The translations under genes were made by a program, and so were the position numbers. Source: Candidatus Uhrbacteria bacterium (GTDB taxonomy: Bacteria > Patescibacteriota > Patescibacteriia > JACQRZ01). Taken from it: a stretch of DNA of 64,000 nucleotides. The stretch's first letter is position 1; every line of letters starts with the position of its first letter. The stretch covers positions 24,116 to 88,115 of the forward strand of contig JACPHV010000002.1 in NCBI GenBank assembly GCA_016188385.1, in the 5' to 3' direction. Positions 16,863-27,919 of the stretch are shown here, one piece after another. The notes below the pieces were generated by a model, which did no database searches, was not told the DNA's origin, and worked only from the letters and a program-made list of their open reading frames with translations.

Positions 16863-16894
16863 ATATTTCTCTGTCGTTCAATCAGTAATACTAC

Positions 16895-16924
16895 TGATAT
16901 GATACCATATTAAGTATCATATCA
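16895..16924. promoter_or_regulatory. dif-like recombination site candidate: 12-6-12 imperfect palindrome TGATATGATACC-ATATTA-AGTATCATATCA, 33 bp upstream of the xer start codon.
   Basis: Arms are reverse complements with one inner mismatch. The 6-bp central region is AT-rich. It sits immediately upstream of the sole Xer recombinase gene, as difSL/difH do beside xerS/xerH. Confidence 0.4.
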
Positions 16925-16960
16925 CAAAACACTACCGATATCAACGAGTTATATGAAATA

Positions 16961-17017
16961 CATGTTTTCCTTTGGCCTAACGGCCAGCTCTTAAAAAGAA
17001 TCCGATTTTGTTTTTCT
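16961..17017 (+). repeat. Repeat family A, copy 1. A 57-bp element with a palindromic core (ggcctaacggcc).
   Basis: Near-identical to 19266-19325 in direct orientation and to 19100-19160 in inverted orientation. The core palindrome differs between copies but stays palindromic. Confidence 0.7.
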
Positions 17018-17039
17018 TTTTTATTAGGGGAAATACGGT

Positions 17040-17063
17040 GTCCCGCCGTATTCTCGGCGGGAC
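17040..17063. other. Perfect 9-bp stem hairpin (gtcccgccg-tattct-cggcgggac) followed by ATTTTATAAAAAAAA.
   Basis: Read directly. Lies between the divergent xer gene and the island genes. Confidence 0.4.
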
Positions 17064-17098
17064 GATTTTATAAAAAAAATACTGTATACTAAATTCAT

Positions 17099-17371
17099 AT
17101 GAGCAATACCATAAAAACAGGTGGTTCCGAATACAACGATATTACCCAACATGAAATTCATGCCTTAAAAACCGAATTGAATCTTGCTGATGCGCATACC
17201 CACCAATCACAATCCAAGTCTCAACAAAAGAGCATAGTTGAAAACCTACCACGCCTGTGGAGTGAATCTGAACGTGCAAAACAAGTAGAAATGGAGGATA
17301 GGTTTTTGATTACTTTTTTTAGAGTGTTAAATCAGGAAGACGCACTAAAAGGGCGGTGGCAAATTATTTGA
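17099..17371 (+). CDS. Hypothetical 90-aa protein. Possibly the detached N-terminal segment of the downstream aminotransferase-like gene.
   Basis: AT-rich ORF overlapping the next ORF by 16 nt in a different frame. Confidence 0.35.
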   Translation: MSNTIKTGGSEYNDITQHEIHALKTELNLADAHTHQSQSKSQQKSIVENLPRLWSESERAKQVEMEDRFLITFFRVLNQEDALKGRWQII

Positions 17372-18246
17372 TGAAGAAAAAAATGTCCGTGGCGTTGATT
17401 GAACCTTGTTTTGACAACCTGCATGATATATTGATGCACATGCAAGTCCCACTCTCTGTCTTACAAGAAGAATGGCTGTCAAATCCAAAAACGCTCTATA
17501 AAAACCTTAAGAAAAATATCACTGCGGATGCCATTTTTATAGTTGATCCAAACAATCCTACCGGACACACACTATTTAAACATCATGAGAAAGCATACAA
17601 CGAACTTATACGTTATTGTCGTGAAAATAACAAATTACTCATCATTGATTATTGTTTTGCACCATTCGTTGACTACGCGCCGGAAATAGAAGTGCCTCCA
17701 ATTTACAAAATGCTCCGTGAGTCAGGGGTACAATACATCAGTATTGAAGACACGGGAAAAACCTGGCCGCTTCAAGATACGAAAGTCGCAATGCTAAAAG
17801 TGTGTGATGAGTTGTATGAAGAGATTTATAATATACACACGGCATACTTATTGAATGTTTCTCCCTTCATTTTAAATTTGGTTACAGAGTATATCCTGGA
17901 TTCAGAAAAGGATGATTTCGGCTCGGTATACAGTTTGCTCATAAAAAATTCCAAAATCGGACAAAAAATTCTAGCCGGTTCCTTGCTGGAATATCAAGAA
18001 CCTCAAGCGAGTGTGAGTGTCATGTGGCTCAAAATCACCAACTCCAAAGTGAAGGCAACCGATTTACAAAAGTTTATTTTTGACCATTCTGGGGTCTATG
18101 TTTTACCAGGTACGTATTTTTTTTGGAGCAATCCCAAAAAAGGACAACGATTTATTAGAGTGGCTATGGCAAGAGATACGGATGTGTTTACCAAGGCCAT
18201 AAAAAAGCTACGAAAAGCACTCGACGAGTATGAAAGAAAACTCTAA
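17356..18246 (+). CDS. PLP-dependent aminotransferase class I/II-like protein. Its N-terminal ~90 aa are missing or split off.
   Basis: IVDPNNPTGHTL (the NPxNPTG motif). DYCF in the DEAY position. DTGKTW in the SFSK lysine position. C-terminal …RFIRVAMARD… It is ~80-100 aa shorter at the N-terminus than typical family members. Confidence 0.5.
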   Translation: MANYLMKKKMSVALIEPCFDNLHDILMHMQVPLSVLQEEWLSNPKTLYKNLKKNITADAIFIVDPNNPTGHTLFKHHEKAYNELIRYCRENNKLLIIDYCFAPFVDYAPEIEVPPIYKMLRESGVQYISIEDTGKTWPLQDTKVAMLKVCDELYEEIYNIHTAYLLNVSPFILNLVTEYILDSEKDDFGSVYSLLIKNSKIGQKILAGSLLEYQEPQASVSVMWLKITNSKVKATDLQKFIFDHSGVYVLPGTYFFWSNPKKGQRFIRVAMARDTDVFTKAIKKLRKALDEYERKL

Positions 18247-26472: not shown

Positions 26473-26522
26473 ATCATTCGAACATTGCTAAAACAAATGT
26501 GCCTAAATACATAAAGTCAGGG

Positions 26523-26573
26523 TTGGCGGGGCGCAATTCACCCCCTCTAATTCCCACTCTTGCGCCCCGCCAA
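26523..26573 (+). repeat. Hairpin family D, copy 5. Perfect 13-bp stem ttggcggggcgca/tgcgccccgccaa, loop attcaccccctctaattcccactct.
   Basis: The loop is ~90% identical to copy 1, while the stem sequence differs but remains fully paired. Confidence 0.7.
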
Positions 26574-26710
26574 CAAGGAATCAATTCGCCCCTTAAAATA
26601 GTGAAAGCGATCGCGGCAATCGGGAATAGTAAAAATGTACTTCGTCGGTCGCTTCGCTCCCTCCGACCACGCTACGCTCTCGCCTTCGCTTCGCTACGGC
26701 TCGGGTCGGC

Positions 26711-26800
26711 TAACACAGCGTATGCGGTTCTGTACTCGGTTCGCCCCTCTCCCATATTTTTGCTCCCGTTGGTCGCAAAAACATCGCATACGCTGGAACG
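26711..26800 (+). repeat. Structured repeat family B, copy 3.
   Basis: taacacagcgtatgcggttc…tctcccatatttttgctcccgttggtcgcaaaaacatcgcatacgctggaacg. The outer stem covaries with copy 1. Confidence 0.65.
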
Positions 26801-26861
26801 CCAGGCTCGCCCCTCACGCAAATTTTGCTTTATTTTTCGACTTTGTTTATAATGGAATCGT

Positions 26862-27008
26862 ATGAAGAAACTACTCGAAAAATTTCAACGCAAACCAAAG
26901 AAACTAGATCCGGAGAAGCCAGCACAGCGAAAACAAATTATTGAGCAAGCTGTGAAACGGACGATTCAGGAATATGGTGAAGCTCTTAAACGACTCGGCG
27001 CTGAATAA
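26862..27008 (+). CDS. Small 48-aa protein, candidate Phd-like antitoxin for the downstream Doc toxin. Not in the ORF track.
   Basis: Manual translation gives MKKLLEKFQRKPKKLDPEKPAQRKQIIEQAVKRTIQEYGEALKRLGAE. Lies immediately upstream of and overlapping the Doc ORF. Confidence 0.4.
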   Translation: MKKLLEKFQRKPKKLDPEKPAQRKQIIEQAVKRTIQEYGEALKRLGAE

Positions 27009-27555
27009 GTCTCACTTTCTGACTCTCGAAGATGTTCGAGATATTTGTTACGTATACGCTAAGGCGTATCTTACGCACGATGAGCCTATCCCTTCTTTTG
27101 ACACGCGCTATCCAGAAAAGCTGGAAGCTGTGCTTGCTTCTCCTCAAACGCAAATTGGCGGAAGATTTGTTCACTCCTCAATGTCGCGACAAGCGGCTGT
27201 TTTATTTTACGAGCTGATTAAACAACATCCATTCCTGAATGTAAACAAACGCATTGCTTGTGTTTCACTTATGGCCTTTCTCTCCCTCAATGATATGTGG
27301 CTAAAAACAAGCAGGTGGTGGCTCTATGATATTGCGGTTACTGTCGCGACATCTCGAAGTGACAATCGCGAGGGGATGCTTCAACTCGTTCCGCTATTCT
27401 ACGATCCATTTCGCTCACCCTTGTATACCGGCCGCCCTCTACCGCCGCTGTTATGCGCGATTAAGTCCGCACCGTGCATTGCAATGGCTCTGGCGCGAGA
27501 AGCCACTTTCTTTTTCCCGTATAGAGTCGGTTGGTTATTCCAAAAGCGAGTTTAG
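26974..27555 (+). CDS. doc: Doc (death-on-curing) family Fic-fold toxin. The start codon is uncertain, and there is a ~45-aa C-terminal extension.
   Basis: …LTLEDVRDI…PQTQIGGRFV…AAVLFYELIKQHPFLNVNKRIACVSLMAFLSLN… The motif HPFLNVNKR matches the Doc-type HxFx(D/N)(A/G)NKR. Confidence 0.7.
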   Translation: MVKLLNDSALNKSHFLTLEDVRDICYVYAKAYLTHDEPIPSFDTRYPEKLEAVLASPQTQIGGRFVHSSMSRQAAVLFYELIKQHPFLNVNKRIACVSLMAFLSLNDMWLKTSRWWLYDIAVTVATSRSDNREGMLQLVPLFYDPFRSPLYTGRPLPPLLCAIKSAPCIAMALAREATFFFPYRVGWLFQKRV

Positions 27556-27919
27556 TGAATATCATCCGCTCGTCGTCGAGATAAAGTAAAATGGCATCCG
27601 TGTTCGATAGAAGTTTTTTAAGGAAAAACGGCATCAGGATCTTTTTGATGCGAATAAAATGCGCTTCGAGATTGCGCGACTAAGTATGAATCCCCGCCTG
27701 TGGATAAACCGCCATTGCGTGTCAAACATATTGATTATATAATATATAATGAATTTATACGCAGTTTTCCTTAAGGTCCCTTAAAAATTTACGAAAGTTG
27801 ATCATCGGGTATGCAAGATGCCGGAATCCCAAGAATGTGCATTATTGCAATATATCGACGAAAATCAGCTTGAGATACAGTAATGGGGAACCCCCGGATT
27901 CCTTAGTTGGCATAGATGT

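Follow-up and report, generated by a model that had tools for sequence, protein, structure and literature searches.

A probable chromosomal integron-like gene-cassette platform beside an Xer-type recombinase gene in Candidatus Uhrbacteria

The stretch analyzed here, called the window throughout, comprises 64,000 nucleotides of contig JACPHV010000002.1 of a Candidatus Uhrbacteria bacterium, a member of the candidate phyla radiation (CPR). Its AT-rich region, which lies directly upstream of a gene for a tyrosine recombinase and is divergent from it, is probably (we would put the chance at about 0.8) a chromosomal integron-like platform of gene cassettes. The reading is built on a folded site of about 100 nt, termed element A, that recurs behind the genes; a double-stranded site between the recombinase gene and the array; the constant linkage of element A to homologues of the recombinase in other genomes; and the way in which the ends of each presumed cassette match each other. 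The core features in the window are as follows.

16050-16862, - strand: tyrosine recombinase, 270 amino acids (aa); Pfam PF00589 (Phage_integrase) plus PF13495 (SAM_4)
16916-16944, - strand: predicted sigma-70-like promoter of the recombinase gene, TTGATA-17-TATGAT, with TG, from a consensus scan only
16933-16959, + strand: recombinase-proximal core site (attI-like or dif-like), TACCGATATCAACGA↓GTTATATGAAAT
19162-19264, + strand: element A site 1, intact, 116.5 bits with covariance model R1
24158-24260, + strand: element A site 2, 99.4 bits with model R1; R'' ACATCAGCTAAC; R' ATTAGCTTAAAT, with the crossover G mutated to A
26703-26811, + strand: element A site 3, 107.2 bits with model R1; R' degenerate or lost (GCCAGGC in place of GTT...)

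Element A reads R''…AAC, a covarying 12-bp stem (L''/L'), and then AAC↓GTT…R', the arrow marking the proposed crossover. In site 1, R'' (19162-19173) is followed by a spacer A (19174), L'' (19175-19186), a branched terminal structure (19187-19236), L' (19237-19248), a GAAC bulge (19249-19252) and R' (GTTGTACGAAAT, 19253-19264), and the DNA fold of this site has z = -5.9 on the + strand and -6.6 on the - strand. Conservation begins at ACATCGnATAAC and ends directly after GTTATnnGAAAT, outside of which the sequence is cassette-specific. The spacer is asymmetric, with A (1 nt) on one side and (G/A)AAC (4 nt) on the other, and the L stem has no conserved extrahelical bases and no conserved bulge within its 12 bp. 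The AAC is present in 108 of 117 sites, and GTT and the covarying L stem are present as well; the full RYYYAAC consensus occurs in 36 and the full GTTRRRY in 24 of the 117, and some sites read exactly GCCTAAC/GTTAGGC.

The sequence comparisons show that the hairpin is under selection for its structure. The three window copies share the 12-bp stem with compensatory changes, those of site 3 being CAGCG/CGCTG; this site is 92-93% identical to sites in loci L197, L187, L017 and L099. An alignment of 11 copies has double compensatory changes in 6 of the 12 stem pairs and only 2 nonstandard pair-cells out of 132. Among 150 sites, 96.3% of the stem cells are paired vs 29-42% in slid controls, with 396 double-change cells and covariation in 10 of the 12 pairs. 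Two side observations concern the inner part of the element: the unpaired CCCA(T/A)AT between the two inner hairpins (e.g., 19206-19216) is invariant in the 11-copy alignment, and a G.T pair at the inner stem end is retained in 140 of 150 copies. The terminal structures of attC sites do not usually show such sequence conservation.

A covariance model built from the element A copies was used to search the window, the genome loci and the metagenomic loci. In the window and the genome loci together, 27 matches reached E ≤ 1, and 24 of these, three of them in the window, had E < 0.01; with filters off, the window contained exactly three full sites plus a weak match at 16912-16970, over the proximal site, and nothing beyond 26822. 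A metagenome scan with a 17-base pattern yielded at least 120 contigs, and the model found at least 264 sites in at least 120 metagenomic loci. No Rfam family matched the whole window at gathering thresholds or the island at E ≤ 1. Viral contigs gave one pattern match and no model match, so element A is essentially absent from them and there is no evidence for carriage by phages. The window holds no element A copy outside the array.

The linkage between element A and the recombinase is constant. Homologues of the recombinase in Uhrbacteria, Falkowbacteria, Vogelbacteria and other CPR bins likewise have the site upstream, and in every locus where homologue and sites occur together (nine CPR genome loci and six metagenomic loci) the sites are upstream of the recombinase gene and divergent from it. 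The architecture is also regular: only 1 of 69 multisite loci has sites on mixed strands, the median spacing is 811 bp, and one locus carries seven sites. Across 86 intersite segments, the longest open reading frame (ORF) runs in the direction of the sites in 70 and against it in 9, and it fills about 82% of the segment. Sites fall at contig ends 52 times vs 22.5 expected. The loci of distant homologues (L021 and L023-L081, mostly from Firmicutes and Chloroflexi) contain only two weak and otherwise arranged matches, both in L021 (Acididesulfobacillus acetoxydans), at 11000-11102 (28.8 bits) and 13003-13107 (18.4 bits). These two share the strand of a Firmicute recombinase with 47% identity and are found downstream of it, and they may represent either a related system with another layout or chance.

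The junctions between units carry most of the argument. If a circular cassette is inserted by a crossover at G↓TT, each arrayed site becomes chimeric, with its R'' derived from the upstream cassette and its R' from the next one. The R'' of a site should then match the R' at the start of its own cassette, which belongs to the preceding site. This is what was found, with agreement at 4.96 of 6 variable R-box positions and perfect pairing in 26 of 48 cases, vs 3.32 of 6 with the adjacent R' of the same site and 3.24 for random pairs. The paired comparison stands at 18 to 2 (Wilcoxon p = 5e-4), and the difference from random pairs has a Mann-Whitney p = 4e-15. Furthermore, in 9 of 13 loci there is a perfect match between the right arm of the proximal site and the R'' that comes first downstream, even though the sequence of the arm varies by locus (permutation P < 2e-4); in the window this arm pairs with the R'' of site 1 at 10 of 12 positions, and cassette 1 begins with GTTATATGA, which is complementary to its 3' R'' (TCATATAAC). 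Because R'' pairs with the R' of its own cassette and because the proximal arm follows the same rule, the cassettes are circularly permuted units joined at or near G↓TT, with the crossover placed to within about 3 nt. This junction signature is that of integron cassettes, and it excludes a purely RNA-level explanation or one by miniature inverted-repeat transposable elements (MITEs).

Of the 23 loci searched for the proximal site, 17 have it, at a distance of 66-326 nt upstream from the start codon of the recombinase gene; in the window the distance is 85 nt. The consensus of the site reads TTCGCATAGAAACGA↓GTTATnnGAAAT, arranged as a left arm TTCGCATA, a center of 7-8 bp and a right arm TTATnnGAAAT. 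Read as an Xer-type core, TTTCGCATA(G)-AAACGAG-TTATnnGAAAT, it has the two inverted arms of about 11 bp and the center of 6-8 bp that mark sites bound by Xer-type recombinases, and the arms match those of a published Xer substrate, ATTTCGCATAA-GGCGTA-TTATGCGAAAT (PMC7399989). Element A contains both arms again: its L box is TATGCGG/CCGCATA and its R box ATAAC/GTTAT...GAAAT, and the L-type arm CGCATA is common to the proximal half-site and element A. In the window, the crossover would fall between 16948 (G) and 16949 (TT), so that the right arm would be part of cassette 1. Contigs L002 and L005 break off shortly past the proximal-site GTT, at 12 and 20 nt, as expected if the sequences within a population diverge from that point. 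The predicted recombinase promoter overlaps the left arm, which would make autoregulation of the recombinase possible. On either side of the locus the GC skew has a positive sign, and the cumulative skew rises monotonically through 16-28 kb, a result of limited power in a 64-kb window; since the sign does not change, the site is unlikely to lie at the replication terminus as a terminus dif.

The recombinase scores 221.7 bits against the NCBIfam model XerA_Arch (cutoff 220) and 209.7 bits, in two stretches, against the integron integrase model TIGR02249, below its cutoff of 265; its similarity to Pyrococcus abyssi XerA is about equal to that with VchIntIA. In the alignment with VchIntIA (2A3V), query residues 178-202 lie opposite chain residues 182-250, so that about 44 residues are absent exactly at the I2 region. 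Integron integrases (IntI) are defined in the integron literature by this extra domain. Residues R131, K156, H220/R223, H246 and Y255 are invariant across eight homologues, and the enzyme is predicted from its sequence to be catalytically intact. It belongs to the CPR "Cand"/XerA-like clade, in which 6197 proteins were retrieved at E ≤ 1e-40; the best 120 of these are all 259-291 aa long, every named one is from CPR, and they are labeled at source as "tyrosine recombinase", "XerD" or "tyrosine recombinase/integron integrase". The "Cand" subgroup is the name given to CPR recombinases presumed to stand in for Xer (PMC8138268). An exact-protein look-up retrieved only one 1.7-kb Logan contig, and there is no second recombinase within the 64-kb window.

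The eight homologues are colinear in the I2 region with the sole exception of L015 (2368-3243, Falkowbacteria), which has a 15-residue insertion (ARLDSLNKSLGDARR) directly after a conserved ERG, within the gap at query residues 178-202. The insertion sits where IntI has its extra ~44 residues including I2, and the L015 locus has a normal element A site. The nearest plasmid-borne homologue, with about 40% identity and labeled "tyrosine recombinase/integron integrase", is found on the Clostridium estertheticum plasmid pCF007-B (L208, 6001-8038), where its gene overlaps that of an IS91-family transposase. No cassette array is present there, so similarity alone does not predict the system; this homologue seems to serve an IS91-type element as an accessory recombinase.

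Under the integron-like reading, the window array divides into four blocks, listed here with their contents (all on the + strand).

16949-19253: cassette 1 (2305 bp), a clean unit with an intact site
16949-17098: conserved leader of cassette 1; a site-flanking stretch of L104 matches it at 83% identity
17039-17064: strong terminator-like hairpin in this leader, between the insertion site and the first ORF
17099-17371 and 17356-18246: class I/II aminotransferase-like gene split by a frameshift, covering Aminotran_1_2 profile positions 90-360
18230-19027: DHDPS-family gene, by domain scan
19044-19098: hairpin D, full copy
19254-24249: composite block 2 (4996 bp), with four gene modules (FAD oxidoreductase, RhuM pseudogene, 311-aa protein, Fic)
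19373-20512: FAD/NAD(P)-binding oxidoreductase (FAD/NAD_binding_8), by domain scan
20582-21214 plus 21242-21604 (span 20582-21604): RhuM pseudogene with one in-frame TAA at 21212-21214
21606-21650: hairpin D, relic
21798-22733: ORF for an uncharacterized 311-aa protein
22737-22770: hairpin D, truncated
22777: relic R'-like box GTTATTTAAAC, behind the truncated hairpin D
22822-24046: Fic module with its own predicted promoter, TTGACA-17-TATACT at 22837-22865
22898-24046: Fic_N plus Fic protein with an N-terminal S-x-x-x-E-G (inhibitory-type) motif and HPFLDGNGR
24050-24099: hairpin D, full copy
24250-26800: block 3 (2551 bp), with a shared leader (24374-24465), a 62-aa ORF, a 604-aa protein and hairpin D
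24473-24661: 62-aa ORF directly ahead of the 604-aa ORF
24658-26472: ORF for an uncharacterized 604-aa protein
26522-26574: hairpin D, full copy
26801-27380: terminal block with a 48-aa ORF and Doc, no site after it
26862-27008: 48-aa ORF, overlapping Doc
26974 onward: Doc (TIGR01550 and Fic/DOC matches), with the domain ending at about 27360 and the ORF running to 27555 through GC-rich sequence

Cassette 1 thus consists of the leader, the aminotransferase-like gene (17099-18246), the DHDPS-family gene, hairpin D and the left arm of element B, the latter being the name for the long inverted arms that flank element A. Block 2 probably comprises several cassettes fused after the loss of their sites, and the distal end of the array is eroded, because no site follows the Doc block. 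With two pseudogenes, two sites that have mutated R' boxes, and lost internal sites among its four blocks, the platform is, by these marks, old, partly decayed, sedentary and eroding, although its recombinase gene is intact.

The variable content of such arrays beside a fixed flank is evident from three relatives, L203, L205 and L202, whose recombinases are 75-81% identical to that of the window and which share the core flank xer-fmt-GT2/Wzy_C-truB-...-rpsI-rplM-rplQ-rpoA. On the array side, L203 and L205 carry co-oriented genes entirely unlike those of the window and unlike each other's, and L203 has six single-gene cassettes, each ending in a site; the L202 contig begins 23 nt before the recombinase gene, so that its array side is not visible. 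A first-pass annotation of the window had proposed a modular, cassette-like accessory array, and had named as evidence to the contrary the same gene order with uniform composition in all relatives; L203 and L205 differ, and the proposal is borne out, the array being accessory content and no part of an ancestral core. It had also allowed for a single island or an integrative mobile element exploiting Xer (IMEX) inserted at dif, which does not hold, as the unit appears to be the small cassette, added singly at the recombinase-proximal site.

Cargo across the arrays includes S-adenosylmethionine-dependent methyltransferases, GNAT acetyltransferases, serine hydrolases, Fic, NUDIX, nucleotidyltransferases and aminoglycoside phosphotransferases (APH), together with metallo-beta-lactamase-fold proteins, GrpB, EamA, an extra methionyl-tRNA synthetase (MetRS) and many unknowns, a repertoire typical of integron cassette pools. 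The MetRS gene is an unusual cargo: the cassette at L173:4025-5641 encodes a full-length class I enzyme (539 aa, E = 1e-143) that may be a spare or antibiotic-insensitive copy.

The Fic module of the window, consisting of promoter/operator, gene and hairpin D, is 86% identical in nucleotides and 90% in amino acids to one in L153, where it lies within another array and has other neighbors; an exact-protein look-up of Fic gave no match. When the ends of the two Fic cassettes are compared (24158-24260 vs L153:3753-3883), 86% homology extends up to R'' (...CATCAGCTAAC-A), and beyond R'' the inner stem, the terminal structure and R' are completely different.

Hairpin D is a second repeated element, a module of about 60 nt that begins at the stop codon and has the consensus AATAAGGAGTTTTGG-variable stem-ATTCACCCCTAACCCCTCT-stem'-CCAAAAC. 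The window has five copies of the hairpin with loop ATTCACCCC, all on the + strand right after stop codons and two of them degenerate, and TTCACCCC has 7 matches in the window vs 1.46 expected. Roughly 20% of element A sites (46 of 219 in other loci) have the module about 100 nt upstream, and its strand specificity is 49 to 1. Its C-rich loop may resemble the 3' end of 16S rRNA. The module may act as an RNA element of the 3' untranslated region (UTR) or as a terminator, or it may belong to a long site as an accessory part. At window 22733-22790 and at L153:5215-5300, the Fic module abuts a hairpin D that is cut inside the loop, at different points in the two loci, and the loop may be especially prone to secondary-site recombination or deletion.

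The composition of the region agrees with the first-pass annotation, which had described an AT-rich switch between xer and about 27.6 kb with all genes divergent from xer. GC content is 0.485 at 1-16862, 0.395 at 16863-27380 and 0.454 at 27920-64000, with the lowest values (0.34-0.40) at 17-24 kb; all island ORFs are on the + strand, and the recombinase gene is on the - strand. Because arrays are more AT-rich than the core side in 10 of 11 loci, the shift is a general property of arrays. The right end is blurred, since the Doc domain stops at about 27.38 kb with no site after it. The repeats that had been noticed behind the genes are real, with five of eight genes carrying one at the 3' side. 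Domain scans recovered the listed split aminotransferase, DHDPS, FAD, RhuM with internal stop, Fic and Doc genes; the supposed paralogy of two "HExxH" proteins (311 and 604 aa) was not detectable by BLASTP (E = 0.85), and the supposed Phd-like partner of Doc, the 48-aa ORF, received no support for a Phd domain in these scans. Fic, Doc and RhuM are indeed present, but the label of a toxin or defense island is too narrow, as the arrays mostly encode small enzymes.

Some further observations concern neighboring sequences. No tRNA or tmRNA that could serve as an integration target was found in the window. A repeat (GTCGCTCCGAAAAC...) is shared by 21717-21739 and 24374-24465, upstream of the 311-aa gene and of the 62-aa/604-aa pair, respectively; it also occurs in L176 and L137, and the 311-aa and 604-aa proteins encoded behind it are not detectably related. 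Downstream of the array, 27920-34372 encodes a 2150-aa protein with no Pfam domain in its first 627 residues; its first 500 residues gave five partial matches among 5.8 billion proteins, including Aquimarina proteins named "tail fiber". These five partial matches include no close relative through which the distal flank could be compared.

In the mechanism that we propose, element A would fold as single-stranded DNA or as a cruciform, and its R''/R' and L''/L' duplexes would imitate the two arms of the core site. The recombinase would then bind the proximal site as double-stranded DNA together with the element A of a circular cassette in its folded form, and one strand exchange at the right-arm border G↓TT would integrate the cassette in a fixed orientation. 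The junction of a circular cassette would read ...GGAACG↓TTATATGAAAT... and, for cassette 1, ...CATAGCCAGGAACG↓TTATATGAAATACATG.... Resolution would presumably be replicative, as for integrons and CTX phage, and recombination between sites would allow cassettes to be excised or reshuffled. That the sites have no conserved extrahelical bases fits the absence of I2 from the enzyme, and asymmetry may stem from the (G/A)AAC bulge.

Other explanations have to be weighed against this one. The most substantial, unlikely in our view but not negligible, is that the enzyme is a housekeeping Xer acting at a chromosomal dif and that the cassettes are hairpin IMEX hitchhikers, like CTX phage, whose single-stranded DNA enters via XerC. 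It overlaps the integron-like reading and differs only in the primary role of the enzyme. It would account for the Xer-type core with arms like the published XerC arm, the missing I2 domain, the synteny of the gene with fmt across Uhrbacteria, the presumed role of the "Cand" subgroup as an Xer replacement (PMC8138268), and the lack of another recombinase gene in the window. However, the unchanged skew sign makes a terminus position unlikely, the right arm is locus-variable and would be renewed by each incoming cassette, which is odd for an essential dif, the cassettes have no replication or phage functions, and up to seven co-oriented single-gene units form an integron pattern and not that of IMEX. 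It is quite improbable that the array is instead a canonical cluster of attC sites lacking integrases (CALIN), served in trans by a true I2-bearing IntI and adjacent to an Xer-like gene by coincidence. The AAC/GTT boxes, including the exact GCCTAAC/GTTAGGC sites, would suit such a cluster, CALINs are common in the literature, and archaeal attC arrays are mostly without IntI, but coincidence is hard to reconcile with a constant position and orientation relative to a ~270-aa recombinase gene in 15 of 15 loci that have both, with a conserved half-site upstream of that gene in most loci examined, and with the L-type arm (CGCATA) that this half-site shares with element A. The sites also lack the conserved extrahelical bases that I2 reads and that determine strand choice in integrons, and the best 120 of the 6197 clade members are all 259-291 aa long.

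The same junctions bear on two further readings. One regards element A and hairpin D as structured RNA of cassette 3' UTRs in an ordinary accessory island; it has in its favor that both elements lie on the coding strand directly behind ORFs, that the covariation is strong, that a G.U pair, standard in RNA, would be kept in 140 of 150 copies, and that hairpin D starts at the stop codon with a strand bias of 49 to 1. We nevertheless consider it very unlikely, with no Rfam match even at E ≤ 1, and it leaves unexplained why R'' pairs with an R' 0.3-2.5 kb upstream and not with the adjacent one, why a half-site stands as a double-stranded site beside the recombinase gene, and why contigs break at GTT; hairpin D may still be an RNA element. 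The other, a single acquired genomic island or degraded prophage with scattered repeats of the MITE or repetitive extragenic palindrome (REP) type, could appeal to the low GC content, the toxin-type genes Fic, Doc and RhuM, and the long inverted repeats. It is highly implausible, given repeats that are co-oriented, gene-terminal and recombinase-linked in more than 100 loci, junction tests that support cassette insertion, and an element confined to the array in the window, with one pattern match and no model match in viral contigs.

Several points also weigh against the integron-like platform itself. The enzyme is without the I2 helix, which the integron literature deems necessary for attC recombination; I2 is held to be required for cassette capture and single-strand recombination, and no ancestor or ancestor-like state is known that could be studied (PMC7790495). 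The recombinase gene is syntenic, apparently vertically inherited and core-like, and its product may be primarily a dimer resolvase; that it would be the catalyst is deduced from its association with the sites. The window has three sites for about ten genes, two of them with defective R' and the last block siteless, so that current activity is doubtful. In the single Fic pair compared, the homology breaks at R'' and not at G↓TT, which the simple model does not predict; exchanges may also occur on the R'' side, e.g., by recombination of the other strand, but this is one case. Finally, the choice of strand cannot be read from mismatches, as G.T (23) and A.C (17) occur at uninformative frequencies.

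On a broader scale, we suggest tentatively, as a proposition that falls somewhat short of even odds, that CPR bacteria contain a widespread lineage of cassette platforms run by an I2-less Xer-type recombinase on dif-mimicking hairpins. If this is true, cassette capture through hairpins does not require the I2 helix, and the lineage would either have survived as an intermediate that links Xer/dif (or single-stranded IMEX) systems with classical integrons or have arrived at the same solution independently. An integron junction signature beside an I2-less recombinase and plain Xer arms bears on the view that I2 enabled capture (PMC7790495), and the origin of integrons from Xer-like systems would become directly testable with real proteins and sites. 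The CPR "Cand" recombinases would have a wider role than the dimer resolution presumed for them, one that includes a cassette platform. For very small genomes, the platforms would offer a route of gene exchange, perhaps the main one of these reduced genomes, drawing on a pool that includes methyltransferases, acetyltransferases, phosphotransferases, Fic/Doc toxins and unknown proteins, and they could help to explain IntI-less cassette arrays elsewhere, e.g., in DPANN archaea. Integron surveys that require an IntI-specific profile would miss these integrases. No description of integrons or cassette arrays in CPR, Patescibacteria or Parcubacteria was found in the literature searched, which covered few subscription journals.

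Among known systems, sedentary chromosomal integrons are like the present one in many respects: an integrase gene divergent from a co-oriented array, an insertion site beside that gene, mostly one-ORF cassettes at a spacing of about 0.8 kb, and an imperfect palindrome with AAC and GTT boxes whose hairpin is under structural selection. They also share the crossover at or near G↓TT with chimeric sites and permuted cassettes, a hypervariable content beside a fixed flank, an array more AT-rich than the host genome, and cargo of GNAT, methyltransferase, NUDIX, APH, toxin and unknown ORFs, the toxin cassettes having their own promoter. Unlike in integrons, the recombinase here is without the I2 insertion (~44 residues) and stays under the cutoff of TIGR02249, conserved extrahelical bases are absent from the sites, the spacer is asymmetric (1 vs 4 nt), and there are a sequence-conserved L box (TATGCGG/CCGCATA) and the CCCA(T/A)AT in a branched terminal structure. 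About 20% of the sites have the extra upstream hairpin D and pairing that reaches past the R boxes, RYYYAAC is complete in only 36 and GTTRRRY in only 24 of 117 sites, and the hosts are CPR/Patescibacteria, for which the literature searched held no integron report.

The dif-IMEX systems of the CTX phage type resemble the platform in their I2-less Xer-type recombinase, in the arms (ATTTCGCATA / TTATnnGAAAT, with a center of 7-8 bp), in a mobile partner that mimics the double-stranded site by intrastrand pairing, and in tandem accumulation at the site. They differ in that the units here are single genes without phage or plasmid functions, up to seven or more in fixed orientation; that the target lies beside the recombinase gene and, by GC skew, not at the terminus, with a right arm that would be renewed at each insertion; and that there is one recombinase gene instead of a XerC/XerD pair. 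The pdif (Re27) modules of Acinetobacter are likewise small accessory units (resistance, toxin-antitoxin) bounded by Xer-type sites with nearly the same arms, for which movement by Xer recombination has been proposed. However, pdif sites are plain 28-bp double-stranded XerC-XerD sites in alternating inverted orientation on plasmids, with no hairpin, dedicated adjacent recombinase gene or directional array, whereas here hairpins of about 100 nt stand in one orientation.

Archaeal integrons and CALINs, reported as arrays in 75 genomes vs 6 IntIs (Ghaly et al. 2022), are similar in that they occur in uncultured lineages with small genomes, recovered only as metagenome-assembled genomes (MAGs), and mostly without a detectable IntI. 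In contrast to the present system, their detection relied on the canonical attC model, and the IntI-specific domain is present in the few integrases that they have; the recombinase linked to the arrays here demonstrably has no I2, and the architecture of the sites is different. The first-pass annotation had held that the array had not been described as a unit; the cassette array is real, but its architecture already has a name, the integron, and the system is best described as integron-like, on an Xer chassis.

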